Below, one piece after another: positions 35,306 to 59,660 of a stretch of DNA of 64,000 nucleotides. The notes beneath the pieces are model-generated. The model was not told the origin of the DNA. It was given only the letters and a program-made list of their open reading frames with translations, and ran no database searches. Positions within the stretch are counted from its first letter, which is position 1. The number at the start of each line of letters is the position of its first letter. The stretch lies in NCBI GenBank assembly GCA_002392645.1, contig DGHL01000040.1, positions 17,906-81,905 of the forward strand. Direction: 5' to 3'. The position numbers and the translations under genes are program-made. The stretch is from Prevotellaceae bacterium UBA3849 (lineage in GTDB: Bacteria; Bacteroidota; Bacteroidia; Bacteroidales; Bacteroidaceae).

Positions 35306-36589
35306 ATGAAGAAAAAACTTACTTCAATCATGATGACGGCTCTGCTTTCCGTTGCCGTTATAAACTGTTATGCGGAAAAGTTTACCTACGACTTGTCTAA
35401 GTCACAGCCAGTCTATTCTGACAAAGGGGGATATGGCTACGATCTTACCAATGCGCCTGATGTAAAGAGTATTACTTCGGCAAAGCTGCCTTCTGGCGGT
35501 TCTGTGCCTCCTTTCTATTTCTCAGTAAAGGTGCCAGATGGTAACTATCGCGTGACGGTTGTCTTGGGTAGTAAGAAGCGTGGCGCTGATACCTATGTGC
35601 GTGCAGAGAACCGACGCCTTATGGTGGAGAACTGCAAGACTAAAAAAGGTGAGTTGCGCACGGTGTCGTTCCTTGTCAATAAGCGCAGTGTCGTTATCAA
35701 TGACAAGCAGAATGTGAAGATTAAGCCCGGCGAAGTGGGCTCGCTCACATGGGACGACAAACTGACACTTGAATTTAATGGTACTGCGCCATGTGTGCAG
35801 AGTATCACGATAGAACCTGACACCACAGCCGTTACCCTGTATCTCTGTGGCAATAGTACGGTGGTTGATCAAGGCAAGGAACCATGGGCGTCATGGGGAC
35901 AGATGTTCCCTCGCTGGTTTAACGACAAGGTCTGCGTGGCAAACTACGGCGAGAGCGGACTGACGGCGGCATCTTTCCTTGCACAGCTACGCCTCGACAA
36001 GATTCTCAGTGAGATAAAGCCGGGCGACTACGTGTTCTGCGAGTTCGGTCATAATGATGAAAAGGAGAAAGGCCCGGGTCGTGGTGCGTGGTATCACTAT
36101 TCCGTAGGTCTGAAGACCTTCATTGACCGTGTTCGTGAGAAGGGTGGCAACATCATCTTCTGCACGCCTACCCAGCGTCGTTTCTTCGAGAAAGACGGCA
36201 CCATACGCAACACTCATGGTGATTTCCCTGCAGCCATGAAGGCAGTGGCAGAGCGTGAGAACGTCCCATGTATTGATCTGAATGCCTCTACCAAGGTGCT
36301 CTTTGAGACGATGGGAGAGGAGGGTAGCAAGCAGTTGCTCGTACACTACAAGAAAGGTACCTTCGCTTGGCAGGATAGGGAGTTCGCTGACAATACCCAT
36401 TTCAATCCTTTTGGTGCTTATGAGGTTTCCAAACTCATCGTCATGGGACTCAAGCAACTCAACAGTCCGCTTGTTCAGTATCTCACGAAAGACTGGCAGG
36501 ATTTCTCTCCGTCATCACCTGATAGCCCTGCTGCTTTCCTGTGGCCTCAGTCTATCTTCCATGATGCCACGAAACCGGATGGCAACTGA
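35306..36589 (+). CDS. Rhamnogalacturonan acetylesterase (CE12, SGNH hydrolase)
   Basis: Signal peptide; GNSTV, SWGQ, EFGHND and DNTHF motifs; TACCTTTG promoter at about 35230. Confidence 0.88.
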   Translation: MKKKLTSIMMTALLSVAVINCYAEKFTYDLSKSQPVYSDKGGYGYDLTNAPDVKSITSAKLPSGGSVPPFYFSVKVPDGNYRVTVVLGSKKRGADTYVRAENRRLMVENCKTKKGELRTVSFLVNKRSVVINDKQNVKIKPGEVGSLTWDDKLTLEFNGTAPCVQSITIEPDTTAVTLYLCGNSTVVDQGKEPWASWGQMFPRWFNDKVCVANYGESGLTAASFLAQLRLDKILSEIKPGDYVFCEFGHNDEKEKGPGRGAWYHYSVGLKTFIDRVREKGGNIIFCTPTQRRFFEKDGTIRNTHGDFPAAMKAVAERENVPCIDLNASTKVLFETMGEEGSKQLLVHYKKGTFAWQDREFADNTHFNPFGAYEVSKLIVMGLKQLNSPLVQYLTKDWQDFSPSSPDSPAAFLWPQSIFHDATKPDGN

Positions 36590-36686: not shown

Positions 36687-39600
36687 ATGACAAAATCAAA
36701 ACAAATCTTCATGCTGCTGCTACTGCTGCTACTCTCGGTGACGGTATCAGCGCAGCGTGTCATTGACAACCTCGACCGTGGCATCGTTGCTGTCAAGACC
36801 ACTGGTGGCGTATTCATCAGCTGGCGTATTCAGTCTGATGAGTACTATGATGTCACCTACAACCTTTACCGCGACGGTTCGCTTGTAGCGGAGAACCTCA
36901 AGACATCTAACTATACTGATGCCTCAGGCTCGACCTCAAGCAAATATACTGTTGCTGCAGTCGTCAACGGTGTAGTTCTGGATCAGAGCCAGCCTGTCGC
37001 TGTTTGGGCACAGGATTACATGGAAATCACTCCTCAGCATCCTTCTGAGTTGAAGGCAACATACGTTCCTAACGATGCCTGTGCAGCTGACGTTGACGGC
37101 GACGGCGAGGTGGAACTGCTCATGAAGTACAACAACTCTCAGGAGATGTCAAACTCTTTTCCTGTTAATGGTTGGTACAACGAGCATACTCTGTTTGAGG
37201 TGACGAAGCTTGATGGCTCTGTGCTTTGGTGGGTCAACTGCGGACCAAACATGGGTGACTTCCAGAATAATGAACAGAATATCGTAGGCTATGACTGGGA
37301 TCAGGATGGCAGTGCAGAGGTACTCATGCGTCTTGAGGAAGGCTCAAGCATACACATGTCTGACGGCACTGTCTATACTATCGGTGCAGATGGTAAGAAC
37401 GGAACATCGTGGACAAACTATCGTAGTCAGGGCTGGGTTTCTCCAGCAGGTGCTACTGTTGCAGTTGAGACAGGCGTTTCTTCTACGGCAACGGTAAGTT
37501 GTTCTGCTGATTGGGTGACCTTGAGTAATGTTAATGGCGTGGTTTACGCTACCGCATCACAGAATGGAGATCCGACAGTAAATGGTTCCGGACGTAGTAC
37601 TACAATCACAATCGTTGACAATGGCGTGCCTAAGAAATTAGGTTTCGGTCAGAATTATTACAGGGACGGAAAGGAAATCTCAAGTCAGTACTTTACCCAC
37701 TATGGTAAGGAATTCCTCGTGTATTGTAACGGTAAGACAGGACAGGTATATGATATCATAGACTTTCCATGTGCACGTTTTGAATCAGGTGAGTCTGACC
37801 TCAATGCTGCATGGGGTGACGGCTATGGTCACCGTTCAAGCAAGTTCTTCTACGGCGCACCATACCTTGACGGGCGTAATCCAAGCATCTTCGTAGGACG
37901 TGGTATCTACACTCGTCATAAGTTCGTGGCTTTGGATGTTGACAAGAACACCCACAAGCTCTCTGAGCGTTGGCGTTGGATGAACAATCAGAAAGGCTCT
38001 CCATGGTACGGACAGGGCTACCATAACTATGGCATTGCCGATGTAGACTGGGACGGTCGTGACGAAATCGTGTTCGGTGGCCTCGTAATCGATGATAATG
38101 GTATGGGTCTCTCTACCGCAGGCTTCGGTCATGGTGATGCCCAGCATCACGGTGACTTCAACCCTTATATCCACGGACATGAGGGATGGTTCTGTAACGA
38201 GGAGGCACCAAACAACCACTATCGTGACCTTACTACGGCTAAGTTGTATTATCGTCTTGAAGGAGGTAGTGACGATGGACGTGCTATCGCTGGTAACTTC
38301 TGTAATACTGTGCCTGGTGCATTTGCATCATCTGCCAGAGATTCTGATAATCCAATCAGTCTCGTGACCAATGAACATGTAGCTGGTTACAGTACCAATG
38401 GCATGGCGCAGAACTTCAACTGTTACTGGGATGGTGACCTCTGCGAGGAAACATATAATGCTGACGGAACCAACTATGATGATAAGCCAGGCGCTATCTA
38501 TAAATATAATCAAGGTAAGATAAAGACGTTCGAGGGTTCGTTGGCAAACAACTGGACTAAGGCTACTCCTTGCTTCATGGGCGACATCCTCGGTGACTGG
38601 CGTCATGAGTTCGTTATGCGCACAGCTGACAATAAGATACGCATCTACACCACGACCATCGAAACACCTTGGCGCATTTATTCTATGTGGTATGACCACC
38701 AGCAGCGCAACGCCATGGTATGGCAGATGTGTGGATACAACCAGCCACCTCATACCTCTTACTTCCTCGGCGAGATGGAAGGCATCACTGCCGCTCCGCC
38801 TGCACTTACGATGAAAGGTCGTACGGAGATTGCCAATGGAGGAACCATCAGCAACGACGGTGCTTCTGTCATCACTTGCGAGACTAACGATATGACCGTA
38901 AGCGTTGCCGACGGTGCTACACCTTATATATATATAGACAACACTCCGTCATTGGTGTCTGGTTCTGCTCCGTCAGAAGCTACTGCCAAGGAGTATCCTA
39001 TCACATACACTTACTATACCCACACTCTTACAGGTGGAGCCTTCGCAGGTGACATGCGCCTCGTGAAGCAGGGTGACGGTGCGCTGACTCTCCCTGATGT
39101 AGTGCAGACATATACTGGTCAGACCGATGTGTGGGCTGGTACGCTTAACTTCAACGGTACCTTGCAGAACTCACGCCTATGGCTCAACCGCTTTGCAGAG
39201 CTCAACTCTGACAATGGTACTTTCGCTAAGGGCATACAGGCAGAATATGCTGCCATTATCCGCCCTGGTGGTAAGGAGGCTAAGGCTTCTACCATAACCA
39301 CTGACTCGCTTATCCTTGATTTCGGTTCTGTCGTTGAACTCGATATCTACAGCAACGGATTAAAGGCAGACTCTATCAAGGCAAACGTGCTGAAGATAGA
39401 GAAAAAGGACTGGACCAATGGCCCTCAGTACCTTACACCTGTATTCCGCATCAATGCACATCCGGCGGCAGGAGCGGCTGCTATCGCCGACGGCATTTAT
39501 TGCCTTGGTACAATAGGTGAAGTCAAGGGTAACCTTGGTGATATCATTATCGAGAATCTTCCAAATCAGAAGGCTGTCCTCTCACTTGAGGAAGGTAAGC

Positions 39601-41591
39601 TCATGCTCGCTGTGACCAATTATGTCGGTGAGCCAATTACATGGAAGGGCGACAAGGGAACAGCCTGGGACCTTGATGAGACGGCAAACTTCGTAAAGAC
39701 AGAGACTGGCGAGGAAGCTGTATTCTATACAGGTTCAGATGTGACGTTCAATGATAATGCCACAAACTACAATGTTGAGATAAAAGGCAACGTGTCACCT
39801 GCGTCTGTCACATTCCTTAACAAAAAGCAGTACACTGTTTCTGGCGATAAGATTATAGGAACACCGGATTTGTTGAAAGACAGCGTCGGCGTGGTTTATC
39901 TTAATAATGTCAACGACATGGGTAACACTACCATCAGCGGTGGTACCCTCTGTGTAGCAAGTCTTGCAAACTCTACAGGTACGGAGATGGGTTCACTTGG
40001 CACTATCGACAAGACCATCACGCTTACAGGTGGTGGCGCTCTTTCTCCAACAGCCTCATTCACGAGTGAGCAGAAAATCATCTGCTATAAAGACAATGGT
40101 GTGATTGATGTTCCGACAGGTGTGACCTTCACACAGGCGGCAAATATAGCAACCTCACAGAACGGTGCCCTCACTAAGGCTGGTGCTGGTACGTTGAATA
40201 TGACGGGTAATCTTACTGCCAATGGAATAACAGTAAAAGCCGGTACATACGACTATACAGGTAATGCCAATAGCAAGACTATAACTTTGCAGGGTAATTC
40301 TAAACTCTCAGGTCAAGGTGTCCGCACAAGTCCTATCGTCGTAGATGCAGGCGCTAACGTAACATGGGATTTGCCGGGAAGTAACTATACGGATATTGCT
40401 TGTGCGGTGTCTGGTTCTGGTACAATTACCGTAAATACCACCAATGCCTATAATCGTACTCGTATTACTGGTAACTGGAGCGGTTTTACAGGAACAGTGA
40501 AATACACCAATACCTCACAAGTGATGCCTATAAAGACTAACTGGAATCTTGCAAAAGGCACACTTGACATAGGAGAAAAAGCGTATGTAGCTGCGGTAGG
40601 TAATACTTGTACCATAGGTAAACTTACTGGTAAGGGTGTGTTAGAGCAGCCGGTGGCTGACTTTAACAGCCAGGCAGCTCCATCGGGAATTAATACATGG
40701 CGTGTGGGTAACAGCTCTGATGCACTTGGTGACTTCCAATTTAACGGCTATCTTTATGATGCAGGCGGTACAACTAAATCAAACTTTGAGAAGATAGGTA
40801 CATGCACCATGACGGTCTCAACCGCATGGCAGAACTCAGGAACGGTTAAGATATCAGAAGGAACACTGCGCTTCAAGTCTAAAGTCACGTTGGGTACAGG
40901 TGCCTTGACTGTGGCAGAGGGAGCAGTTCTCGCAGGTTTGTCTAACACGGCGAGCGGTACGTCAAAGAATTCTCCTATCACCAATAGCAGCATAACTGTA
41001 AACGGAACCTTGTGGCCGTCAAGTCAGGAAACCTCTGTTTCTTCCAGTTATTTATGTATAGGCGATAAGACTGTTGACTTCTCATCTACGGGCAGGCTTA
41101 AAGTTGGATTGAAGAAATGTTCTACGGGTTCTGTTGTGTATAACACATGTCTTATCGGTGATGGTAGTAAGGCAACGATAAACTTTGCCGATGGTGTCAC
41201 TATCGAAGCCTATGCTCCGGACTATACACCGACATTCGTCAATGAAGAGGTAACAGACTCATTCAAGGTACTGGTTGACATTCCTAACGTCAATGTCGCA
41301 GGCAAGCTGAACTACGAACTGCCTACGCTTCCTATGCATTACTATTGGAAGAACCGTTGGGACAGCACGCTTTTTGCAAAGACAGGATGCCTCTATGTAG
41401 GATATATAGAGCTGATTGGCGACGCTAACAGGGATGACCAGGTCACCATGGCAGATGCGAACATGGTAGTAAACTACTTCCTCGGTGGTACGACTGAAGG
41501 CATCAGCCTGCCGCATGCTGATGTCAATGGCGACGGACAGATTACCATGGCAGATGCCAATGCCATAGTGAATATATTCCTGGGACAGTAG
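36687..41591 (+). CDS. Multimodular rhamnogalacturonan lyase: PL11 (YesW-like) domain, autotransporter-associated beta-strand repeats and C-terminal type-I dockerin
   Basis: LDRG.VA...SWR, RGIYTR, GQGYH...ADVDWDGRDEI, GHGDAQH, GDILGDWRHE and GYNQPPH (PL11); LVKQGDGALTL / LTKAGAGTL repeats; duplicated GDxNxDxxVTMADAN at 41418-41591. Confidence 0.88.
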   Translation: MTKSKQIFMLLLLLLLSVTVSAQRVIDNLDRGIVAVKTTGGVFISWRIQSDEYYDVTYNLYRDGSLVAENLKTSNYTDASGSTSSKYTVAAVVNGVVLDQSQPVAVWAQDYMEITPQHPSELKATYVPNDACAADVDGDGEVELLMKYNNSQEMSNSFPVNGWYNEHTLFEVTKLDGSVLWWVNCGPNMGDFQNNEQNIVGYDWDQDGSAEVLMRLEEGSSIHMSDGTVYTIGADGKNGTSWTNYRSQGWVSPAGATVAVETGVSSTATVSCSADWVTLSNVNGVVYATASQNGDPTVNGSGRSTTITIVDNGVPKKLGFGQNYYRDGKEISSQYFTHYGKEFLVYCNGKTGQVYDIIDFPCARFESGESDLNAAWGDGYGHRSSKFFYGAPYLDGRNPSIFVGRGIYTRHKFVALDVDKNTHKLSERWRWMNNQKGSPWYGQGYHNYGIADVDWDGRDEIVFGGLVIDDNGMGLSTAGFGHGDAQHHGDFNPYIHGHEGWFCNEEAPNNHYRDLTTAKLYYRLEGGSDDGRAIAGNFCNTVPGAFASSARDSDNPISLVTNEHVAGYSTNGMAQNFNCYWDGDLCEETYNADGTNYDDKPGAIYKYNQGKIKTFEGSLANNWTKATPCFMGDILGDWRHEFVMRTADNKIRIYTTTIETPWRIYSMWYDHQQRNAMVWQMCGYNQPPHTSYFLGEMEGITAAPPALTMKGRTEIANGGTISNDGASVITCETNDMTVSVADGATPYIYIDNTPSLVSGSAPSEATAKEYPITYTYYTHTLTGGAFAGDMRLVKQGDGALTLPDVVQTYTGQTDVWAGTLNFNGTLQNSRLWLNRFAELNSDNGTFAKGIQAEYAAIIRPGGKEAKASTITTDSLILDFGSVVELDIYSNGLKADSIKANVLKIEKKDWTNGPQYLTPVFRINAHPAAGAAAIADGIYCLGTIGEVKGNLGDIIIENLPNQKAVLSLEEGKLMLAVTNYVGEPITWKGDKGTAWDLDETANFVKTETGEEAVFYTGSDVTFNDNATNYNVEIKGNVSPASVTFLNKKQYTVSGDKIIGTPDLLKDSVGVVYLNNVNDMGNTTISGGTLCVASLANSTGTEMGSLGTIDKTITLTGGGALSPTASFTSEQKIICYKDNGVIDVPTGVTFTQAANIATSQNGALTKAGAGTLNMTGNLTANGITVKAGTYDYTGNANSKTITLQGNSKLSGQGVRTSPIVVDAGANVTWDLPGSNYTDIACAVSGSGTITVNTTNAYNRTRITGNWSGFTGTVKYTNTSQVMPIKTNWNLAKGTLDIGEKAYVAAVGNTCTIGKLTGKGVLEQPVADFNSQAAPSGINTWRVGNSSDALGDFQFNGYLYDAGGTTKSNFEKIGTCTMTVSTAWQNSGTVKISEGTLRFKSKVTLGTGALTVAEGAVLAGLSNTASGTSKNSPITNSSITVNGTLWPSSQETSVSSSYLCIGDKTVDFSSTGRLKVGLKKCSTGSVVYNTCLIGDGSKATINFADGVTIEAYAPDYTPTFVNEEVTDSFKVLVDIPNVNVAGKLNYELPTLPMHYYWKNRWDSTLFAKTGCLYVGYIELIGDANRDDQVTMADANMVVNYFLGGTTEGISLPHADVNGDGQITMADANAIVNIFLGQ

Positions 41592-41717
41592 CTTCGCTTC
41601 GCTCAGAGTGAAAAGTGAAAAGTGAAAAATACCATGCGGAAGGCCTCACATCCAGCCTCACCTGTGAGGGAGGGGGAAGTGAGTGAAAAGTGAATAATTC
41701 CCATGTGGAGGATAGAC

Positions 41718-41754
41718 ATCCCCTCCCTGCATATAATGTGTAGGGAGGGGATTT
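41718..41754 (+). terminator. Hairpin terminator / REP-like palindrome after the PL11 gene
   Basis: ATCCCCTCCCTGCATAT...GTGTAGGGAGGGGATTT; preceded by GAAAAGT heptamers and a REP-like copy at 41655-41674. Confidence 0.65.
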
Positions 41755-42043
41755 GATTTCTGCTTGACCTGGCGAAGGTTCCTCCCATTATGCCCATAAA
41801 ACCCATAAAACCCATAAACCAAAAAATAATTGTCTGAAATAGTTATCTATAATTCGACCATTCGGGACAAAAACATCAGACTTTTAAGTAGTAATTATAA
41901 TTCGTTTTCATATCTCGATATAGGACATTTTTGATATTTCATGCTCAGAAAAAAGTTCACCGAAAAACGCAAAATAGAGAGAGCAAGGGTAGGGCGAATC
42001 GTTAAAAACGCCCCCTTTTAACGCCTATTTTACGGGTCGAGAT

Positions 42044-42150
42044 GTAAAAGCATACCTTTTACATTGTAATATGATAGCTTTTACGCTGTAATTGGATAGC
42101 TTTTGCAGCGCAATATGATAGCTATTACAACCCAAAAGCTATCATATTAC
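42044..42150. repeat. 22-bp-period quasi-palindrome array, copy 3 (5 units)
   Basis: Units at 42044, 42066, 42088, 42110 and 42132 (last one inverted). Confidence 0.85.
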
Positions 42151-42562
42151 GATACAGTTTTAAACCCCTCTATTGAAAATCAATAAGTTACAACTCACTG
42201 AGAATGTCGATGAAACCGACTGACCATAAACTTTTTCAAAAAACAGCCCTTCATTTCGACTTAACGAAGGCATCAGAATAGGACAAAAACAACATTCTCG
42301 TATTCATGGACATGATTCCAAGTTTATTCTCATCGTGTGTTTTCGTCGATAAAGCAGACAAGACCTTGTAGAAATTGAAAATCTTGAAATTTTTATCGAA
42401 AATATTATTATTTTTCTCAAAACATTTGGTAGATTCAAAAAAAACATTTAACTTTGCAGAAAAATAAAAGGAGAGATATACATAATATAATAAACACAAT
42501 ATACAAAATCAACGAACATAGACAAATCACTTAAATTATAATTAACTAACACCAAAACAATT

Positions 42563-45412
42563 ATGAAGAAACATTTACTTCTATTATTTACGGCTGCAAT
42601 GACGTCATTGTCAAGCTTTGCGCTTGGTCTCAATGATTTCATATACACGCAGCATGGACGTTTCCAGATTATGGATGCGACGAATAACTTTACGGGTAGC
42701 ATCCAGGGATTTAGTGGCTTCAGTGCTATTTATAACGATGGTAGTACAAAAGTTGATTCTTTGTTCGTTACGGGACAGGATGCTACTGTGGGAGACTATT
42801 TCCAGTCTAATATAAATGTACCTTATACAGAGGGTCTTATAAGCAAACTCGATTTGCCAGCTGGTAATTATATCGTTAGCTTCAAACTTAAGTCTGGTGC
42901 TATTACATCTGCAATACCTTCTGGCGGAACATTCGCTGGTATGAACCGTATTCGTCTCGTTAGCGTAGCAAAAGATGCTACGGTTACTTCTGCTAATGTT
43001 GATGAGATAGTAGCAAGCTATGAGTCAGGACTTACCATAGGTACAGAGTGGGCTACCTATGGCTTTGATGTAGAAGTAGATCCTTCAAATGACTATTATC
43101 TGGAGTTCCTTGGTATGCAGAGTCAAGTGGCTGTAGCTGATATTCAGATCCAGGAGGCAATGCAAGTTGCTGATTTACGTAAGAGGGATTATATGATCAA
43201 CTTTATCAATGCGTATAAATCAGTAAAGCAAATAACAGAAGAACAGGATAAGGAATTTGGACTCACGGAGAATTTAGAGGTACTCGAGGGTATTAATGAG
43301 ACATCAAGTCAGGAGGAATTAGATGAGGTAATCGTTTCCTTGGATGAAGCCATTTTAGGAATGCGTGGTTTAATGGATTCTTGGCTGTCAGATAAAGATA
43401 ATAGTACCTTCCCTGCAGGCTTTACTTGTAATAACAAATCAACGGATTGTGGCATCTGGACTACGAATCCTTCTGGTCGTTTGCATAAGGATACATGGAA
43501 TGGTAAGACATATCCGGAGTTCCCACATTTCCAGCATAGCAATGGCTGGGATAGAACTGGTGTGATGGAGACAAAGGAACTACAAGAGTTCCCCGCAGGT
43601 TCTTATGTATTCTCAGTTGACGTAAGGGCGTTAGTTCGTCTTCGTGAAGGTAAGCAGAACTGGACTCCTGATTTGGGAATGGATTGTTTCCAGACGACCC
43701 TCTATGTTGTAAATGAGGATGGTGATACTGTTGCTGTAACAGGGCCTTATGCTATTCGTGCAAGTGAGTTTACTCCTAATTACCTTGTATTTAAGTTGGA
43801 TCAGCCTTTAAACTGTAAGGTTGGTATAAAGACTGAGGGTATTAAGGAAGGAGGAACTAATATCTATCCTGGAAGTTACGGTGGTACCATAATGTTTAAG
43901 GATGCAGCACTCTACTATGTGTCAGCTTTGCCATATACTAAGAAGCAGCTTGACTACATTAAGGCTGTTCAGAAACAGATAACGACTGGACGTGATTATA
44001 TTACAAGCAATACAGAGGGCATTAATAATGCAGAGAAGTATTGGGGTAAGGCTGAGCTTCAGGCATGTCTTGATACTGCAGTAGCTAAAGTTGAGGCTTA
44101 TGAAGCTATTAAGACAGATACAGCTTACATTATTAATACTTATAATGAATATGTAGGTGAAGGAGGTGAATGGGCTTCTTCAACTTCTTCGGAATCTGGT
44201 ATTCTCGAGTATGATATCTATCAGAATGTTGTAAAGGACCTTATCGCTGCTAATAGGAAATTCAATGATTTGAACGATACCTTGAACAGTTTGGCTGAGG
44301 CTATCGTAGCAGCTAAGGAATTTAGAAATCTTCGTGTATATGCAGAATCTACTACAAATGAAGGTTTGGATAACGAGATTACTAAAGCTGAAAACTTGTT
44401 GACACAATTGCAGAATGATGCATACAGTGAGGAAAATGTTGATTTGTTGCTTGCTGAAATAGATGCTCTCACTGCTAAAAAGAGCGAGTTTGCTGCTGGT
44501 ATCCCAACAGAAAAGATAGAGGTTATTGCTGATATCGACTTTGAACAGCCAGCCGTTGGTCTGGAAGGCGAAGCTACTTCTGGTGCTGTAACTATTGCCG
44601 GTGCTGTCGGTCAGATGGAGATTGATAACTTTAGTACTGTTGCTGCTGATGGTGTATTCCAGAAAGGATATGACAAGAATTTTGAAACTTTCCATGAGGG
44701 TATGCTTCGCGTAGGTAATGGTGCAGGTATTGTTAATATTGATGAGGATAAGCGTGTAACAGGTTCAAATATCCTCCGTGCTTCATTTGATATGCACTTC
44801 GGTAAGTTGAACAATCGTAATTCAGGTTTCGATTTCCTCGACGAGAATAATGAGCGTGTGGCAGAGGTTTATTTCGATTTCTATAATGGCAATATGAAAA
44901 ATGGTGGTCGTGATGACTTCGGATTGAACTTCTCTTACATTCCTTCATACGGTGCACAGGGTGTTGACAATGATTCTATCATAGGTTCTGATGATTATAA
45001 GACTCACTTTGAGATAATCATTGATTATGGCACATCTAAGATGTACTGTTCTACAACATCTAAGAGCGGTTCTCAGAAAACAGTAGAGGTAGCTCTTCCT
45101 AACAAGGAGCCAATAGCTATGTTCCGAGTTAAGTCTAACTATAGTTCAAACCCAGAGCGTCGCTCTTGGTTCGATAACCTGAAGATTGAGAAGATTACTG
45201 CTGCTGAGGTCGTTTCTGTAACGGGTGATACTAACGGTGACGGTGTGGTTACTATGGCTGATGCTAACGCTATCGTTAACTACTTCCTCGCAGAGGATAA
45301 GACAACCATCACAAACTTCGATGTTACTGCCGCTGACGTAAATGGTGACGGCGATATCACAATGGCTGATGCCAACGCTGTAGTTAATATCTTCCTCGGA
45401 AGTGCTGAATAA
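42563..45412 (+). CDS. Secreted multidomain protein (beta-sandwich/CBM-like modules with helical linkers) with C-terminal type-I dockerin
   Basis: Signal peptide; TAACTTTG promoter at about 42449; C-terminus GDTNGDGVVTMADANAIVNYFL...ADVNGDGDITMADANAVVNIFLG (45224-45412); no catalytic motif recognised. Confidence 0.75.
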   Translation: MKKHLLLLFTAAMTSLSSFALGLNDFIYTQHGRFQIMDATNNFTGSIQGFSGFSAIYNDGSTKVDSLFVTGQDATVGDYFQSNINVPYTEGLISKLDLPAGNYIVSFKLKSGAITSAIPSGGTFAGMNRIRLVSVAKDATVTSANVDEIVASYESGLTIGTEWATYGFDVEVDPSNDYYLEFLGMQSQVAVADIQIQEAMQVADLRKRDYMINFINAYKSVKQITEEQDKEFGLTENLEVLEGINETSSQEELDEVIVSLDEAILGMRGLMDSWLSDKDNSTFPAGFTCNNKSTDCGIWTTNPSGRLHKDTWNGKTYPEFPHFQHSNGWDRTGVMETKELQEFPAGSYVFSVDVRALVRLREGKQNWTPDLGMDCFQTTLYVVNEDGDTVAVTGPYAIRASEFTPNYLVFKLDQPLNCKVGIKTEGIKEGGTNIYPGSYGGTIMFKDAALYYVSALPYTKKQLDYIKAVQKQITTGRDYITSNTEGINNAEKYWGKAELQACLDTAVAKVEAYEAIKTDTAYIINTYNEYVGEGGEWASSTSSESGILEYDIYQNVVKDLIAANRKFNDLNDTLNSLAEAIVAAKEFRNLRVYAESTTNEGLDNEITKAENLLTQLQNDAYSEENVDLLLAEIDALTAKKSEFAAGIPTEKIEVIADIDFEQPAVGLEGEATSGAVTIAGAVGQMEIDNFSTVAADGVFQKGYDKNFETFHEGMLRVGNGAGIVNIDEDKRVTGSNILRASFDMHFGKLNNRNSGFDFLDENNERVAEVYFDFYNGNMKNGGRDDFGLNFSYIPSYGAQGVDNDSIIGSDDYKTHFEIIIDYGTSKMYCSTTSKSGSQKTVEVALPNKEPIAMFRVKSNYSSNPERRSWFDNLKIEKITAAEVVSVTGDTNGDGVVTMADANAIVNYFLAEDKTTITNFDVTAADVNGDGDITMADANAVVNIFLGSAE

Positions 45413-45424
45413 ATTGAATACATA

Positions 45425-45468
45425 CTTTGTGACAACTAAGTTCCTTAATGAACTTGGTTGCCACAAGG
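45425..45468 (+). other. Intergenic stem-loop without a T-tract
   Basis: CTTTGTGACAACTAAGTTC-cttaat-GAACTTGGTTGCCACAAGG. Confidence 0.6.
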
Positions 45469-45523
45469 TTAAATAAGAAAGAAAACTCAAATTAATATTA
45501 ATTTAAAACAAAATCTTAAGATT

Positions 45524-46330
45524 ATGAAAAAATTATTTACACTTATCGCTTGTTGCTTTAGTGCAGTATGTATTTCTGCTGCTCCGAAGTCAGATATCTC
45601 AAGCTACAAAAATTATTTGTATATTCCTGATGACACTAAGTTCGTTGCAGGTACAGAAACTACAGTAGAGATAAAACTTAGACAGACAGGATGGATACAG
45701 GGTGCTCATTGTGAGATAGTATTCCCAGAGGGATGGACAGTTAAAGCTCCTACTCTTGTAAAGAAGTCTTTGTTCCAGGTATTGACTGATCCTGAGGATG
45801 AAGAATCAACTATGGAATTGTGTGCAGCTTCAGGTCTTGCAGCTAAAGGTACTGTTGCCACTGCAGCTACAACTGGTCTTGGAACTGCTGGTGGTTATGA
45901 TGTAAATGATCCTACGAAGTATTACAATTTTGGAAAAGAAGATGCTTCTCATTCTTACTATAACTATAAAGAAGGTGAGGATATAGTACTTTTCAAGGTT
46001 AAAGTTACTCCTGCTGCTGCGTCAGGTACTCCTGCAACAATCACGTTTACTGATTGCGAACTGTGTTTTAATGATCCAAACTATAAGACAAATCCTGATT
46101 TGAGTGACTATGCTTGGAATAACTATTGTAATCCAGCTATAACTGCTAAGGAAACAGGTGTTGAAAGATCTTTAGTTTTTGAGTTTGATGTAGAGGGTGC
46201 AACTGGCGTTGATGGCGTTTCTGAGGATGGCGCAGAGGCTGCTGCTCCTGCAAAGAAGATTGTTGATGGTCAGCTCGTAATCGAGACTGCTAACGGTACT
46301 TTCAACGCTGCTGGCGCACAGGTAAAGTAA
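45524..46330 (+). CDS. Putative single-cohesin protein with T9SS-like C-terminal sorting signal
   Basis: Signal peptide; cohesin-like strand pattern AGTETTVEIKL / IQGAHCEIVFPEG / GEDIVLFKVKV / AASGTPATITF; tail TGVDGV...KKIVDGQLVIETANGTFNAAGAQVK; follows two dockerin genes. Confidence 0.62.
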   Translation: MKKLFTLIACCFSAVCISAAPKSDISSYKNYLYIPDDTKFVAGTETTVEIKLRQTGWIQGAHCEIVFPEGWTVKAPTLVKKSLFQVLTDPEDEESTMELCAASGLAAKGTVATAATTGLGTAGGYDVNDPTKYYNFGKEDASHSYYNYKEGEDIVLFKVKVTPAAASGTPATITFTDCELCFNDPNYKTNPDLSDYAWNNYCNPAITAKETGVERSLVFEFDVEGATGVDGVSEDGAEAAAPAKKIVDGQLVIETANGTFNAAGAQVK

Positions 46331-46349
46331 GATATCATATCATACTAAT

Positions 46350-46396
46350 AAAAAAAACTTCGCTTGAACATTCAAGCGAAGTTTTTTCGTTTTTTC
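46350..46396 (+). terminator. Rho-independent terminator after the cohesin-like gene
   Basis: AAAAAACTTCGCTTGAA-ca-TTCAAGCGAAGTTTTTT. Confidence 0.8.
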
Positions 46397-46459: not shown

Positions 46460-46720
46460 ATGGCAAGAAATATGAATACTATATCATTATCCCCCGAATT
46501 CTTCAGTGATTTGGGAGTGATAGCTCAGGACGAAACTCTGTTTGTTAAATTACAGAAGTATGTAAAAAAACTTATTTCCACAAAGGCAAAAGATGACAGT
46601 CTAATGACAAAAGACGAATTCTTTGCCAAACTTGAACGCTCAAGAAAGCAGATAGAAGAGGGAAATTATGTGAAGTTTTCCAATATACAGGAGTTTAATG
46701 AGTATTTTGGTGTTAAATGA
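46460..46720 (+). CDS. Putative antitoxin of a YoeB/Txe module (about 86 aa; start re-assigned to ATG 46460)
   Basis: Overlaps the toxin start (ATGA); C-terminus EFFAKLERSRKQIEEG is typical of RelE-superfamily antitoxins. The upstream extension to 46364 runs through a terminator and a promoter (TAATTTTG). Confidence 0.7.
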   Translation: MARNMNTISLSPEFFSDLGVIAQDETLFVKLQKYVKKLISTKAKDDSLMTKDEFFAKLERSRKQIEEGNYVKFSNIQEFNEYFGVK

Positions 46721-46983
46721 AGTACGAAGTGTTGTTTACCAAAGAGGCAGAAAAGGATATAAACCGATTGAGAGAGTCTGAACCTGCTGCTTTTAAAAAA
46801 CTTGTAAAACTGGTAGCAGAACTATATGACCATCCTATGACAGGAACTGGTAAGCCAGAGATGCTGAAAGGTAATCGTATTGGGCAGTGGAGTCGCAGGA
46901 TAACTAAGAAGCATCGGCTGGTATACGAGATAAATGGTGATAAGATCTATGTCTATGTACTTTCAGCCTATGGGCATTATTAG
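46717..46983 (+). CDS. yoeB: Txe/YoeB family ribosome-dependent mRNase toxin
   Basis: GTGKPE.LK, WSRRIT.KHRLVY and C-terminal GHY motifs. Confidence 0.93.
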   Translation: MKYEVLFTKEAEKDINRLRESEPAAFKKLVKLVAELYDHPMTGTGKPEMLKGNRIGQWSRRITKKHRLVYEINGDKIYVYVLSAYGHY

Positions 46984-47215: not shown

Positions 47216-50095
47216 ATGAAAAAACTCATTTTGTATGCATCTCTTGTTTGCATTGGAATGGCATCTTGCTCAAAAGACTATGTAGTCGATGAGGAGAACC
47301 TGCCATCATGGCTTGGTGAGAGCATTTACGGAGAGTTGAAGAGTCCGAAGACGCTTTCAGGTTCGTTTAATACGTATCTGAGGCTTATTGACGACATGGG
47401 GTATGGTGAAGTCCTTGGTCATACCGGTAGTAAGACCATCTTCCCTGCGAACGATGCGGCGTTTGAAGCCTATTTCAAAGATGGCAACAACCGCTATGGA
47501 GCAAGGAGCTATGAAGACCTTACCTACAGTCAGAAGGCTCAGCTGCTCTATTCGTCAATGATTGACAATGCCATTCTTATTGGTAACATCTCTTCTGAGC
47601 AGAACTCAAGTGGTGAACTGTTGCAGGGTAAGGCTGTGAAGCACTCTACCAACCTGCAGCTGACTAATACCATTGAACCACTGTATTCTCAGAATTTCCC
47701 TAAGAACAATGCTTCGTTCACACGTTTCATTGACAAGGGAGCTATCCTGACCGTCAACGATAACAGCGTGGCACCGATGGTACACTTCACCGGTGAGTAT
47801 ATGCTTAATAATGGCATGACGGTCGTAGGAGACAATAACGACTTCTCTGTACTTACTGGAAATGAGTACACTGACGGAGATGCTTACATCTTCAATCATA
47901 AGGTGATAACAAGCAATGTAACCTGTCAGAATGGTTACATACACCAGCTTGACGGCGTTCTTGAGCCACCGGGCAATATGGCACAGGTGCTGAGAGAGGG
48001 TACGGAGTCAGGTTCTGGTACCAGTCTTTTCTCACGCATGTTGGATTATTATTGCGCACCATTCAATGATGTTACCACAAAGAACAACTATAATGCGTGG
48101 GCTATTGAGAATGGTGAGGCAACAATCGAGAATGTATATGCCATACGTTACTATAGCCAGATGTCAAATGGTGCAAAGAAATTGGATCGCTATACTGACG
48201 AGGATGGCAAGATAAGCGACGTGCATACAGAGTCACAGTTGCTTAACTTCGATCCAGGATGGAACCAGTATAAGCCAAATGCTACAAGTTCGGCTAATGC
48301 AGAGATTGCTGCAGTCCTTGCACCAACAGACGATGCCCTGTGGGATTATTTCAAGGAGAACGGTGGCGGTGGTGCATACATCATCAAGAACCTCGGTAAC
48401 CCAGAGTTGGAGAATACGCGCGAGAACCTCGGTGAGCATTTCGACGCTATTTATAACAGCGACCCTTCTGTGTTTACCAACATGCTGAACAACCTGCTGA
48501 AGTCTAACTTCTCAAAGACCGTTCCAAGCAAGTTCTCTACGGTGCAGAACGATGCATTCGAGTTCATGGGCGTGAAACTCGACGACGTTCACATGAAGGA
48601 TGACGGCAAGTATGATGTCAAGATTGCCAACAACGGCGTTATATACAAGATGGACAAGTTCTTTGCTCCACAGCTCTATAACTCAGTACTCGGTCCGGCT
48701 TCCGTATATCAGAACATGCGCAGCATGGGACAGATGCTCAATGACCATGCCGTTACTGCCGGTGAGGTGCCTGCACTTGGCGTGAACATGTACTACTACC
48801 TCATGTCTATGAAGTCAAAGTATGCAGTGTTCGTACCAGAAGATAACAGTACATTCGTGTATATCGACCCAACGTCAATATATGACGCCGACAACTATGG
48901 CACAAAGGCGCTGCGCTTCCGTTTCAACACCGCAGCAACTGATTCAAAGTTCAATGTAATGGTGCAGAAGGGCCTGTTCGAGAACGGCGTGTTCACCGAA
49001 CTTGGAGAATACACTGAGGAGAATATCGAGAAAGGTACATACTCTACCCAGATACAGGACATGCTGAACTATCATGTAGTAGTGCTCAACAGCAACGAGG
49101 ACGGACTCAGCGGAAATCACTACTACAAGACGAAGCATGGTGGTGCAATCTACGTTCCAGACGGTTTCGCACGTAATGGAAAGACAGTTCAGGGTGGTGC
49201 CCAGATTGAAGGCAAGGCTCCTGCTGCCAAGGTGCTTACACAGTATAGTAGGACTGGACGCACCGATGCAGATCCAGAGGCAAATATCGAGAATGGTACT
49301 TGCTACCTCATCAGCACTCCTATACAGCCTACTACTACAAGTACATATAAGGTACTCTCATCTAAGTTTGAGAAGTTCTATGACTTCATGAGCGGTTTTG
49401 AAGGAAATACCGATATCCTGAAGTTTGCAGGACTCAGTGATGAGGAAAACGAGAAGACTCACAAGTCAGAGCAGACAAACTATATGATGTTTGCTGCTAC
49501 AAACTTAAATCCTATACGTGAAGACCTGTACGATGCACGTATGCGCATGCTCGGTGCATATAACTATACGGTATATGCTCCTACAGACGATGCAATGGAC
49601 AAGGCTTATGCAGCTGGTCTGCCTACATGGGATGAGCTGGAGGCGTTGTTCAATCAGTGGGATAATCAGGAAACAACGAATCCTTCTGGCTATGCTGCTG
49701 CATCTGCAGAGGCACGTAAGAAGATTGACGTAATGCGTCAGTTCGTGTTCTACCACATTCAGAACAACTCTGTCTTTGCTGACAACACTGTTGCCAGCGG
49801 TTCTTACCAGACATTCTGCACTGATGACCTCGGCATTGCACAGACACTGGGTGTCAGCGGTGGTAACGGCACGCTGAACGTGCGCGACAGGGCTGGTAAT
49901 ACGGTTAGCGTGACGTATGGAAGCGCTAATGCCAATATCTTGGCACGCGACATCGTCAGGACATCTACGGGTGCTATCGACTATTCTTCATTCGTTACCA
50001 TACATGGTATCGACACACCTCTCTGCTTCAGCACGACCGGTAGGTATGACAGCAAATGGAATAATGCCGGTTCTGCGAAAAAAGCAGTGCGCTAA
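47216..50095 (+). CDS. Fasciclin-domain surface lipoprotein (PUL surface glycan-binding-like)
   Basis: Lipobox MASC; repeated T.FP.ND.A / T.YAPTDDA and NG.IH.LD / NGVIY motifs of FAS1. Confidence 0.8.
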   Translation: MKKLILYASLVCIGMASCSKDYVVDEENLPSWLGESIYGELKSPKTLSGSFNTYLRLIDDMGYGEVLGHTGSKTIFPANDAAFEAYFKDGNNRYGARSYEDLTYSQKAQLLYSSMIDNAILIGNISSEQNSSGELLQGKAVKHSTNLQLTNTIEPLYSQNFPKNNASFTRFIDKGAILTVNDNSVAPMVHFTGEYMLNNGMTVVGDNNDFSVLTGNEYTDGDAYIFNHKVITSNVTCQNGYIHQLDGVLEPPGNMAQVLREGTESGSGTSLFSRMLDYYCAPFNDVTTKNNYNAWAIENGEATIENVYAIRYYSQMSNGAKKLDRYTDEDGKISDVHTESQLLNFDPGWNQYKPNATSSANAEIAAVLAPTDDALWDYFKENGGGGAYIIKNLGNPELENTRENLGEHFDAIYNSDPSVFTNMLNNLLKSNFSKTVPSKFSTVQNDAFEFMGVKLDDVHMKDDGKYDVKIANNGVIYKMDKFFAPQLYNSVLGPASVYQNMRSMGQMLNDHAVTAGEVPALGVNMYYYLMSMKSKYAVFVPEDNSTFVYIDPTSIYDADNYGTKALRFRFNTAATDSKFNVMVQKGLFENGVFTELGEYTEENIEKGTYSTQIQDMLNYHVVVLNSNEDGLSGNHYYKTKHGGAIYVPDGFARNGKTVQGGAQIEGKAPAAKVLTQYSRTGRTDADPEANIENGTCYLISTPIQPTTTSTYKVLSSKFEKFYDFMSGFEGNTDILKFAGLSDEENEKTHKSEQTNYMMFAATNLNPIREDLYDARMRMLGAYNYTVYAPTDDAMDKAYAAGLPTWDELEALFNQWDNQETTNPSGYAAASAEARKKIDVMRQFVFYHIQNNSVFADNTVASGSYQTFCTDDLGIAQTLGVSGGNGTLNVRDRAGNTVSVTYGSANANILARDIVRTSTGAIDYSSFVTIHGIDTPLCFSTTGRYDSKWNNAGSAKKAVR

Positions 50096-50128
50096 CACTA
50101 TTTAATTTAAGTTTAATACAAAGAAGTC

Positions 50129-53100
50129 ATGAATATTATGTCAAAACAAAAGGTTCTACTGACATTCATACTCTTCGTCATAACACAGATGGTGATGGCG
50201 CAGGGAGTCGTCATATCAGGAACTGTTGAAGACGCAATGGGACCGGTCATGTTCGCAAACGTCACGGAGCGTGATGCTAATGACCGTATCATTAACGCTA
50301 CGCAGACAGATATGATGGGTAACTTCTCCATGGAAGTTAAGAATACAAAGAATATGCTCGTCGTGTCTTACGTAGGTAGCAAGACGTGGAAAAAGAAAAT
50401 AGGAAACGAAACGACTTTCGCTATAAAACTTGAGGATGAAAAGACAACACTTAATGAGGTGACCGTGCGTGGTCGCCGTGCTAATGCTGGTGGCTTGAAC
50501 ATCCAAAAGAAAGAGATTTCGGTGTCACAGCAGACTTTCAACCTCTCTGAGGTGGAAGGTATGGCGTTCACCTCTGCCGACGAGGCTCTGCAGGGTGAGA
50601 TTGCCGGTCTGGATATCGTAAGTAACTCCGGTAACCTCGGTTCCGGAACTACAATGCGTCTGCGTGGTGTTTCATCATTGTCTGGTAACTCTAACCCTCT
50701 CATCGTAGTTGATGATAAGATATTTGACTATAATGAGGGTGACATTGACTTCGAGAATGCTGATACCGAAGCTTTCTCTTCTCTGCTTGCTGTCAATGTG
50801 GATGATATTGAAAAAATTAACGTGCTCAAAGATGCTGCCGCTACGGCTATCTGGGGTTCACGTGGTGCCAACGGTGTCATAGAAATTACTACAAAGCGTG
50901 GTAAGCGTGGTAAGCCAAGGGTAAACCTCTCATATAAGTTCACAGGTACATGGATGCCTGCTGGATACCAGTTGCTTAACGGTGACCAGTACACCATGAT
51001 GCTTAAGGAAGAGTTCTATAACCCAACACAGAGTGCTGACGCTACCAAGAACATTGCCGAGATTAACTACGACAAGACTTGGCCGGAGTATAACTACTGG
51101 AACCGTAACACTGACTGGGTGGACGAGGTGAAGCAGTTCGGTGAGCAGCATGAGGCAAATGTCAACATTACCGGTGGTGGACAGAAGGCTACCTTCCGTA
51201 TCTCTGCTGGCTACAACCATCAGACTGGTACTATCATCAAGCAGCGTCTTGATCGTCTGACCACTCGTCTCGTACTCGACTATAATGTGTCAGACCGTAT
51301 CAAGTTCTCTACGAACTTCGCCTTGACATATACAGACAACCTGAAGAACTATACACTTGGTTCAAGCAAGAACGGTAACTCTAACAACAATATTCTCGCT
51401 ATGGCGCTCGCTATGGCTCCGAATATGTCTATCTACCGTAACAATGGTGAGTACTACCTGATGAATCCTGCCGGAAATGATGCAAAAGGACAGACACCTT
51501 ACACAGGTAACTACAGTTCTGAGAAAATGGGTTCAGTGTATAAGATTGGTAACCCTGTTGCCTATGCTAACTCTTCATGGCAGAAGGAGCAGACTTACAG
51601 CATCGTACCTGACTTCAACCTGAAGTATGAACTTCTCGGTATAGAGAGCAACCAGAGTCGTCTGACATTCGACGGTCGTGTATATTTCGACATCTATGCA
51701 TACTCACTGCCTACATATATGCCGGGTAGCCTGTCAAACGGAGACTACGATGCAGCGACATATAACTATGCAACCAACACTGAGAAGAACAACTTCAAGC
51801 TCGGTGCACGTGCACAGCTCGTCTTTACACCTTATTTCAAGAATGAGGACTTCAGTCTCACAATGCTTGGTCGTTATGAGTGTAACACAGGACGCTATTC
51901 TTATCAGTATGCTGCAAAGAGCCAGTTGCCAAATGGCTTGGAGACTATTGAGGCTCAGGCTAACAACCGTGATATGAGCAACTCTCTCTCAACAGTGAAG
52001 ACTGCATCTCAGAACTGGGTTTACAATGCACACTTCTCTTACAAGGAGCGTTACAACATCAGCTTCTCACTGCGTGGTGACTGTAGCTCTGGATTCGGTC
52101 CTGATAATCCTTGGTTCTATTCTCCTTCTGTTTCTGTACGTTATAACCTCAGTGACGAGAAGTTCTTCGAACCATTGCGTAAGGTCGTATCTATGTTCGG
52201 TATCCGTGGTTCATGGGGTATTTCTGGTAGTACAAGTGCAGGAGCTGCACAGTTCTACAACACCTATAAGCCATCTGCAGGTACGTATGGTACAGATGCA
52301 TACACTACTCTTGACGGTCTGAAGCTCACGACTCTCAAGCCACAGAAGCGTCAGGGTCTTAACCTCGGTTTCAACCTCGGTTTCCTGAATGATATAATCG
52401 AGATGGACCTTAATATATATAAGGAGAAGACTTCTGACCTTATAGTAAAGAATGCTCCAATACCTTCTACTACTGGTTACACAGTGGTAAGTTTTGCCAA
52501 CATCGGTAAGATTGAGAATAAGGGTTGGGAGCTTTCTATCAATGCAAATAAATTCCTGAAGGTAAAGAAATTCACTCTCTCTGCTTCTTTGAATATGGCA
52601 CAGAATGCCAACGAACTGCTTGAGATGAACAAGGACGTGCTCGCAGGATATAATACGAAGTTTGAGGATGTTTATACAAAGCGTGGCAATGCAGCACGTA
52701 TGAACAAGGTAGAGATAGGTGCTCCTCTGTGTTCTATCTATGGCTACCAGTCAAAGGGCGTATTCCAGTATTCTTATGAATACCTGACCAACTATAATAC
52801 AAAGATGAGACAGCAGAATGCCAACTGGACATCTGTTGACTTTGAGAATTGGATAAACGAGCAGTTGGCTGCCGGCAAGACATTCCCTGTCGCTACCGAT
52901 GCTAACGGTCATGTCATAATGACTAATAACGGAGAGCCACAGCATCTTGTTTACAGATATTACAATGGTACATCAGAGTACCAGTTCCAGGGTGGTGACG
53001 CTCATTATGAGGATATCAACCATGATGGTCAGATTAATGAGCTTGATATCGTTTACCTTGGTAACTCACTGCCAAAGCTTCAGGGTGGTTTCTCACTCAC

Positions 53101-53560: not shown

Positions 53561-53608
53561 TAATGTGACACTAAAATACAACATATAATTGTAAAGAGAA
53601 AACATAAT

Positions 53609-55447: not shown

Positions 55448-55482
55448 TAGATAATGTTTTTATTCTATTTAAACTTAAAATA

Positions 55483-57678: not shown

Positions 57679-57745
57679 TTAGTTAAACATATAAGTTGAA
57701 TAATTAGTAGTTCAAGTATATTAACCGTTTAAGAGAACGATTCTT

Positions 57746-59629: not shown

Positions 59630-59660
59630 AGATATTAACAAAGAATAACGAAGAATAGTT

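Follow-up and report, generated by a model that had tools for sequence, protein, structure and literature searches.

A predicted single-cohesin protein with an export-type tail follows dockerin-ended genes in Prevotella: a candidate export-and-anchor adaptor

Background

In Gram-positive bacteria, scaffoldins are anchored to the cell wall by means of sortase. Ruminococcus flavefaciens ScaC (PDB 5LXV) and ScaE (PDB 2ZF9) are small secreted proteins with one cohesin each, which anchor or adapt dockerin-tagged proteins. In this work, we describe a 268-amino-acid (aa) protein of similar layout, predicted to be a single cohesin with an export-type tail and encoded in a 64-kb stretch of DNA from Prevotellaceae bacterium UBA3849 (the whole stretch is called the window below). 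Its gene stands next to those of two secreted proteins ending in dockerins, a 1634-aa PL11 rhamnogalacturonan lyase and a 949-aa protein: the three open reading frames (ORFs), at 36687-41591 (1634 aa), 42563-45412 (949 aa) and 45524-46330 (268 aa), lie on the + strand, as do all window features given below, and are those of an earlier, sequence-based description of the locus, here the initial annotation. ScaC and ScaE are the best structure and profile matches of the 268-aa protein, which by analogy may work like a Gram-positive single-cohesin anchoring scaffoldin; unlike in that cell-wall anchoring, where there is no outer membrane to cross, the cargo is here mostly other than carbohydrate-active enzymes (CAZymes), so that by its cargo the system is not a cellulosome.

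The closest printed precedent is the system predicted in Ca. Stygibacter (Cloacimonadota), where enzymes with signal peptides carry C-terminal dockerins and a cohesin protein has a C-terminal domain (CTD) for surface attachment (PMC8542988). That protein, unlike the one described here, is a 3,755-aa scaffoldin with multiple cohesins and carbohydrate-binding modules, from another phylum; the accessible part of the account contains no swap of a dockerin for a tail and does not address the export of tail-less cargo (PMC8542988). Adjacent dockerin and cohesin genes, proposed to form a Gram-negative surface tether for an enzyme, are likewise reported in Chlorobium chlorochromatii (Cag_2037/Cag_2038), but there the proteins are giant, type I secretion is proposed and the cohesin sits on the enzyme (bioRxiv 10.64898/2026.03.19.712371, accessible part).

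Type I dockerins like those found here are known from rumen Prevotella and other Bacteroidetes, both on proteins and in polysaccharide utilisation loci (PULs), and metagenome bins in which 11 dockerins but 0 cohesins were detected have been reported (PMC6487960, PMC6071333, PMC7480376). Their role in rumen Bacteroidetes PULs is called undefined (PMC7480376). Whereas the accessible parts of these reports leave partner and role undefined, a candidate cohesin partner, missed by standard cohesin profiles, is found at the present locus; that such cohesins escape PF00963 may explain bins with dockerins and no cohesin.

Export that depends on a partner protein is familiar from twin-arginine translocation (Tat) hitchhiking. 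In type IX secretion (T9SS), export or anchoring of type B cargo depends on a PorP/SprF partner, often encoded by a neighbouring gene (PMC10202324); type B cargo bears a CTD of its own and pairs with a beta-barrel protein, unlike the tail-less cargo and soluble cohesin considered here. Short CTDs from Prevotella intermedia are 40-55 residues long, prefer a PT/GI cleavage site, contain three predicted strands and are experimentally cleaved; 48 of them are listed, and the main text of that report mentions neither dockerin nor cohesin (PMC11969387). The PorU cleavage site is also described in PMC10202324.

We favour, if by a small balance of probability, the reading that the 268-aa protein (the adaptor) is a shared export-and-anchor adaptor for dockerin-tagged proteins. 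The wider proposal that in many Prevotella the dockerin-cohesin pair is a detachable T9SS signal, with cargo hitchhiking on cohesin-tail adaptors to form an exchangeable coat, several orthogonal pairs per genome and the permuted short tail described below as the signal, is put forward tentatively, its chances being in our judgement not quite even.

A predicted cohesin with an export-type tail

The adaptor (45524..46330) is composed of a signal peptide, a divergent cohesin-fold domain at about residues 25-221, a linker and a short export-type tail. The initial annotation had suggested a cohesin from the strand pattern, and structure prediction agrees: the AlphaFold2 model (35-sequence alignment, mean pLDDT 70, pTM 0.66) has an all-beta domain, followed by a linker of low confidence and by three strands at the end, and in a Foldseek search of the PDB all nine matches at E<=0.001 are cohesins or cohesin-like, as are the rows through rank 17, with R. 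flavefaciens ScaC and ScaE in the lead. A profile built from 18 close homologues had ScaC as its sole PDB match (E 0.017); another, from 18 related Prevotella domains, matched scaffoldin cohesins (best E 5.9e-7). Identity of the adaptor to the R. flavefaciens single-cohesin scaffoldins is about 13%. Among its homologues, PF00963 recognised one full-length sequence, with E 0.0012, as well as many distant homologues of the domain that exceed the cut-off; Atlas neighbours of the adaptor include cohesin clusters. Signal peptide, whole domain and a near-invariant tail are retained in 18 aligned adaptor sequences. A predicted complex of the cohesin domain with the dockerin of the 949-aa protein and two Ca scored 0.17, against a mark of 0.32, with the controls unfolded, and was counted neither way.

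The tail (46205..46327) comprises 41 residues after a Thr227/Gly228-Val site, with three predicted strands and with its motifs in permuted order. Length within 40-55 residues, a Thr/Gly-hydrophobic site, three strands and a strictly C-terminal place on proteins with signal peptides are the traits of short Prevotella-type CTDs, and the adaptor tail has them all; it thus resembles the short type A CTDs of P. intermedia (PMC11969387), and we regard it as likely to act as a short T9SS signal. Unlike the short CTDs described in the main text of that report, its order is permuted, and we do not class it among type A CTDs. In the homologue families, the motif B, D, E pattern described for short CTDs is seen in the commonest tails, and the permuted type sits at the same junction as these canonical short tails in homologues of the 949-aa protein. 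Long tails are found on PL11 homologues, where PF18962 matched the C-terminus below cut-off in 5 of 12 tested. Within the source genome (assembly G000; 1.97 Mb, 56% complete), 40 of 42 tail-profile matches are terminal; SprA was found there, and PorU in all five dockerin-rich relatives (5/5). Short tails whose motifs look circularly permuted are common on Prevotella secreted proteins and are missed by TIGR04183 and PF18962.

The region from the 949-aa gene to the end of the adaptor gene also varies among strains. In runs X4, X8, X9 and X18 the segment matching 42563-46330 has a highly variable 949-aa body and cohesin domain between constant flanks, and contigs matching up to 45550 run on into other cohesin-gene starts. 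In homologues inferred to share one contig, identity is 89% for PL11, 39% for the 949-aa body and 33% for the cohesin. Variable parts between constant flanks suggest allelic exchange of surface-exposed portions.

Dockerins alternate with tails at one junction

The PL11 lyase (36687..41591; PF18370, PF21348, PF12951, PF00404) has a signal peptide, its lyase domains being PF18370 and PF21348, and ends in a dockerin (41418..41588) with two near-symmetric Ca-binding repeats bearing a TMADAN signature. PF00404 matches residues 1578-1629 with E 3.2e-13, above the curated cut-off. In the secreted 949-aa protein (42563..45412), PF00404 is the sole Pfam family above cut-off: it covers residues 888-943 (E 1.6e-11), and this second dockerin (45224..45391), of the same TMADAN type, stands at the junction where homologues begin their tail. 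Both dockerins score well over the PF00404 cut-off of 22.9 bits (50.1 and 44.7 bits) and conserve the duplicated repeats of type I dockerins, as proposed in the initial annotation; score and duplication rule out that they are EF-hand false positives.

The same annotation had taken both proteins to process rhamnogalacturonan, a claim that finds no backing for the 949-aa one, in which Pfam, a PDB sequence search and Atlas disclosed no recognisable enzyme domain. The PDB sequences gave no usable match; the Atlas leads, several of them carbohydrate-binding, were all below 0.9, the best (0.88) having no family. The protein is conserved at this locus, with a variable sequence.

Homologues of the 949-aa body share a common junction motif, after which their ends diverge. 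Among 125 clusters (119 new identifiers from the best 120 of 140 homologues, plus 6 others), 117 end in a short tail, four in a dockerin, three in a dockerin-cohesin-tail fusion and one, a fragment, in neither; one of the four dockerin-ended clusters is a 98% near-copy of the query. The adaptor's own tail type occurs on 14 clusters, nine found by the body alone and five only via the tail. For PL11, the best 120 of 2690 homologues have a tail in 99 cases, a dockerin in 20 and neither in one. The exchange is also visible between paralogues within the source genome, where paralogues of the PL11 lyase (61% identical) and of the pectate lyase (46% identical) end in tails; 40 ORFs of this genome are tail-ended, and none of its 19 dockerin ORFs is.

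In a quick, unrooted tree of 51 body ends, dockerin-ended rows stand in six separate places, counted by eye, among tail-ended sisters; neither duplicates nor rows lacking that junction motif entered the tree, and P0272 was lost from it. Sequence comparison thus shows that dockerin and tail alternate at one junction and that fused forms exist. The unit likely arose by insertion of a dockerin-cohesin cassette before a tail, followed by splitting of the gene.

Cohesin genes accompany dockerins

A search of 400 genus genomes found the 949-aa family in 48, and the locus was read in all of these, 29 of them with 1.5 kb flanks, so that an upstream dockerin could be missed in the 29. In five loci the 949-aa protein or the upstream gene carries a dockerin, and the gene that comes next encodes a cohesin with a tail in four (G003, G264, G087, G191); no dockerin is seen in the other 43, and the next gene, visible in 41, is never a cohesin gene (0/41). 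The exception among the five, G394, has a dockerin at the locus, no adjacent cohesin and four cohesin matches elsewhere in its genome. Two loci selected via the tail, L056 and L060, are also cohesin-positive; a third, L059, ends too early to be scored. Dockerin placement varies: PL11, the 949-aa protein or both of them may carry it. G191 repeats the arrangement, with differences in dockerin signature, tail type and gene context. The gene adjacency pointed out in the initial annotation is therefore conserved in relatives and depends on the dockerin. Since the cohesin gene follows the 949-aa gene in most loci with a dockerin and in none of the scorable ones without, the dockerin/cohesin pair appears to split cargo from tail.

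Beyond this family, 42 further loci were picked as cohesin matches. Of the cohesin genes there that lack a dockerin, 17 have their upstream gene in view: 12 directly follow a dockerin-ended gene, three a gene with an internal dockerin, one stands second after such a gene, and one has none. The signatures upstream of the 12 are of several different kinds. Among the matches listed for 300 genomes, a cohesin-profile match is present in 32 of 32 with at least 10 dockerins, about one genome in ten; of the 35 genomes holding 3-9 dockerins 34 have one, as do 3 of the 121 in which dockerins are lacking. Weak PF00404 matches in these genus-wide counts may include EF-hand false positives. Layouts were read in 134 cohesin-bearing representatives: cohesin-dockerin-cohesin-tail is the commonest (46), and 13 have neither tail nor dockerin.

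Dockerins across the source genome

The genome-wide count returned 19 dockerin ORFs on 17 contigs of the source genome, and three cohesin ORFs with a custom profile; a PF00963 search of this assembly had 0 matches. The TMADAN signature is found in one or both repeats of 18 of the 19 dockerin proteins, the one on contig C40 being different. By a hydrophobicity heuristic, 18 of the ORFs begin with a signal-peptide-like start and no lipobox, while the remaining one is cut by a contig end. Pfam recognises CAZymes in three of the 19 (PL11, pectate lyase, GH11), none of them a cellulase. Others comprise five DUF285/leucine-rich repeat (LRR) proteins, one LRR fragment, one PKD/LRR protein, one M6 peptidase and one weakly Lcl-like protein; seven have no other Pfam family above cut-off. 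This is not the plant-wall-enzyme-dominated set, cellulases included, that characterises a cellulosome. By eye, with no family search, no SusC-sized receptor was seen within 4 kb of the other 17 dockerin genes, several contigs ending nearby. In the relative G003, there are 37 dockerin matches; 22 loci were read, and all 23 dockerins there are of the TMADAN type.

The three cohesin ORFs of the source genome are the adaptor, one that immediately follows the odd dockerin gene of C40, and a third that is also dockerin-ended. Each has one cohesin, whereas relatives possess proteins with 2-6 cohesin-profile matches; a multi-cohesin primary scaffoldin was not found in the 56%-complete assembly. The system is thus genome-wide rather than PUL-specific, the pectin locus probably being one client and not its purpose. 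The initial annotation had depicted a surface-anchored single-cohesin adaptor serving the PUL: the single cohesin with an export-type tail is retained as a prediction, while dedication to the PUL does not fit 18 of 19 dockerin proteins with the same signature, spread over 17 contigs, three of the 19 being CAZymes. Moreover, one cohesin cannot cluster two enzymes in the way a scaffoldin does.

Some of these genes deserve separate mention. The C40 pair (C40:3025-18418), a second dockerin/cohesin-tail set with a different dockerin signature, lies behind a tailed 4215-aa pectate lyase/pectinesterase protein and recurs in G093 and G087. The 1327-aa PKD/LRR protein at C77:2001-5990 has an internal cohesin and a terminal dockerin, and might attach to the adaptor and so form a second tier; G003 has a cohesin ORF of similar size. 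Two 139-aa secreted proteins (C13:15838-16278 and C51:5305-5751) hold, apart from signal peptide and dockerin, little more than a short segment, and are possibly cohesin blockers or carriers.

Discussion

The analysis shows the domains, the swap, the linkage and the intermediate fusions; the reading we favour infers, in addition, binding, a role of the tail, co-export and anchoring. Sec signal peptides would bring cargo and adaptor into the periplasm, where the cohesin would be bound by the Ca-loaded dockerin. The tail, acting as a short T9SS signal, would then pull the complex through SprA, the translocon, so that cargo lacking a tail would hitchhike, and PorU would finally cleave near Thr227 and join the cohesin to surface polysaccharide, leaving the cargo displayed non-covalently and exchangeable. 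As the dockerin occupies the place of the cargo's export tail, the adaptor is probably needed for export besides capture. The cargo is tail-less, is no lipoprotein and has no evident outer-membrane route, while its orthologues are tailed: in the simplest reading, a non-covalent dockerin-cohesin link therefore replaces the peptide bond between cargo and tail. What seems new is a form of surface display by cohesin and dockerin that is coupled to an export-type tail, Prevotella dockerins and the CTD-bearing cohesin scaffoldin of Ca. Stygibacter being already known.

If cargo does hitchhike, the T9SS exports non-covalent complexes, and its substrate lists omit a whole class of tail-less proteins. 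The locus provides a three-protein test system as well as a candidate partner for the long-reported rumen Bacteroidota dockerins with no assigned role, and the natural series of tail, fused cassette and split cassette tells what the dockerin-cohesin pair substitutes for. The mechanism, if true, would also supply a modular surface-display tool for Bacteroidota.

Several findings weigh against this reading. The 268-aa protein itself matches no Pfam or NCBIfam family, PF00963 included; the similarity of its model to cohesins is moderate (TM by target 0.35-0.70, at a pLDDT of 70), and cohesin homologues are 30-48% identical while the dockerin signature is constant, which is unusual for a cognate pair. 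The tail that the initial annotation called T9SS-like fits short CTDs in its 41 residues, three strands and Thr/Gly site; on the other side, TIGR04183 and PF18962 match neither this tail nor those of the 949-aa homologues tested, and relative to the B-D-E order the hairpin comes first and a motif-B-like stretch last. Its profile aligns to the canonical short type over the linker only, and at full length after re-ordering of the pieces; it does not align to the long tail type. The tail profiles were built from the same families that they classify, and the class "tail" accordingly rests on these profiles and on the reading of ends. The source assembly, which is 56% complete, yielded neither PorU nor PorV. 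The adaptor need not serve all cargo, because the source genome and G003 hold other cohesins (3 and 7 matches). Genus-wide co-occurrence is partly trivial, many cohesins and dockerins being fused, and the cohesin-positive relatives are not independent, since three of the four share one dockerin type. Finally, a full-text literature search, in which subscription journals were largely missing, found no report of hitchhiking export through the T9SS and no paper on the dockerin-for-tail swap, and the accessible parts of PMC10266427, PMC9763041, PMC9177762 and PMC12484212 have nothing on either.

The linkage and swap data are accounted for equally well if the adaptor is T9SS-exported and fixed to the surface, while cargo exits by itself and docks from outside, as in Gram-positive cellulosomes, possibly also on neighbouring cells; the dockerin could then be an alternative export signal, or cargo might leave in vesicles or by lysis. 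The described cohesin-dockerin systems considered here all assemble outside the cell (PMC6487960 and PMC8542988, in their accessible parts), and in the source genome the dockerin is terminal in 18 of 19 proteins (two meet assembly gaps just after it), much like a C-terminal signal. We nevertheless hold this to be unlikely: the cargo, with neither tail nor lipobox, has no evident second export route, and dockerins that are internal with no tail after them, one on contig C107 of the source genome and several, read by eye, in G003, suit a binding tag better than a terminal signal.

Lack of any display would mean that dockerin proteins stay periplasmic or bind another partner, the cohesin gene being a by-product of cassette insertion and splitting. 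It would fit that the tail is no proven T9SS signal, that strains differ greatly in the cohesin domain, and that in one relative the dockerin at the locus has no cohesin next to it. Against it, the 18 aligned adaptors keep signal peptide, whole domain and near-invariant tail; a single dockerin signature recurs on 18 unlinked proteins of the source genome and on 23 of 23 dockerins read in G003, and the cargo types, DUF285/LRR and pectin-lyase folds, are listed as T9SS cargo in PMC11969387 (accessible part). This explanation thus seems improbable to us.

That the adaptor is devoted to the PUL, gathering the two local dockerin proteins beside SusC/SusD for rhamnogalacturonan breakdown, is very unlikely in spite of its conserved position between PL11 and a fasciclin-SusC-SusD block (G003, G264, G087, L056, L060) and of the adjoining PL11 and esterase genes, given 17 further dockerin proteins elsewhere in the source genome, mostly non-CAZymes, a single cohesin per adaptor, unable to bring two enzymes together, 41 scorable loci in the 949-aa family that have neither module, a G191 cassette outside the PL11-fasciclin-SusC-SusD context, and terminator-like and promoter-like sites that part PL11 from the adaptor's unit.

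Transcription signals and neighbouring genes

A terminator-like hairpin with a 16-pair stem and a T-rich tail, known from a consensus match only, follows the PL11 gene (41718..41760), and the 949-aa gene is preceded by a promoter-like site of the Bacteroidetes type (42425..42456; -33/-7 consensus). Because of these two signals, the PL11, 949-aa and 268-aa genes are probably not one transcript. The Bacteroidetes-type scan gave 8 matches in the window, this site included, against 2.3 by chance; a sigma-70 promoter scan was near chance (36 vs 25.6 expected, sd 5.3), and so was the terminator count in the window (10 vs 8.5 expected). A further terminator-like hairpin (46352..46395, z -6.9) closes the unit formed by the 949-aa and cohesin genes. 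Contigs from RNA libraries of runs X1, X2, X4 and X8 start at 42460-42489, 4-33 bases past the promoter-like site, a weak hint of a promoter before the 949-aa gene; contigs of runs X15 and X19, whose kind is not on record, read across the site. In RNA-library assemblies of two studies a single contig spans both the 949-aa and the cohesin gene, contigs of this sort showing neither a single transcript nor an expression level; their cover is thin over 41632-42295, which was given no weight.

The spacer between these two genes holds a strong hairpin with no U-run (45424..45469), the folding energy of the spacer being -25.7 kcal/mol (z -5.4; 0 of 200 shuffles as good). By analogy it could stabilise or process a two-gene transcript and so set cargo-to-adaptor ratios, an idea that stems from clostridial cellulosome operons. 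The intergenic region after PL11 (41592-42300) contains short repeats matched in part by many unrelated contigs, and is probably a dispersed repeat element.

Upstream of PL11 lies a 427-aa GDSL-family esterase (35306..36589; PF13472 E 2e-15, with an NF041897 (PaeY) match below cut-off), probably a pectin/rhamnogalacturonan acetylesterase, which we take to belong to CE12. Downstream of the adaptor, a small gene with no family above cut-off and a YoeB-like toxin gene (46460..46983; PF06769 E 2.3e-19) form a probable type II toxin-antitoxin insertion, outside the cohesin-dockerin system. The pair separates the adaptor from the fasciclin gene and was not seen at this position in G003; other small insertions surround the 949-aa gene in relatives. 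There follows the core of the adjoining PUL (47216..62999; Pfam, TIGR04056), with a fasciclin-domain gene, SusC (TIGR04056), SusD (Pfam), two further fasciclin-domain genes and a second TonB receptor, in the same gene order at related loci. A susC/susD pair with linked CAZymes (TIGR04056, SusD families, PL11, esterase) is what defines a PUL, and its target is taken to be pectin from the presence of PL11. This core, with its three fasciclin-domain genes and two TonB receptors, is conserved in relatives with or without the cohesin cassette.

Firmicute contamination was ruled out, the genes being syntenic with the SusC/SusD block in Prevotella/Prevotellaceae records and contamination of the assembly being 0.09%. 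Near-identical pieces of the locus were found in sheep and bovine gut runs. Farther away, the window contains a 1015-aa protein with three Cthe_2159 carbohydrate-binding stretches (2282-5329) and a HipA-family gene (8956-10260).

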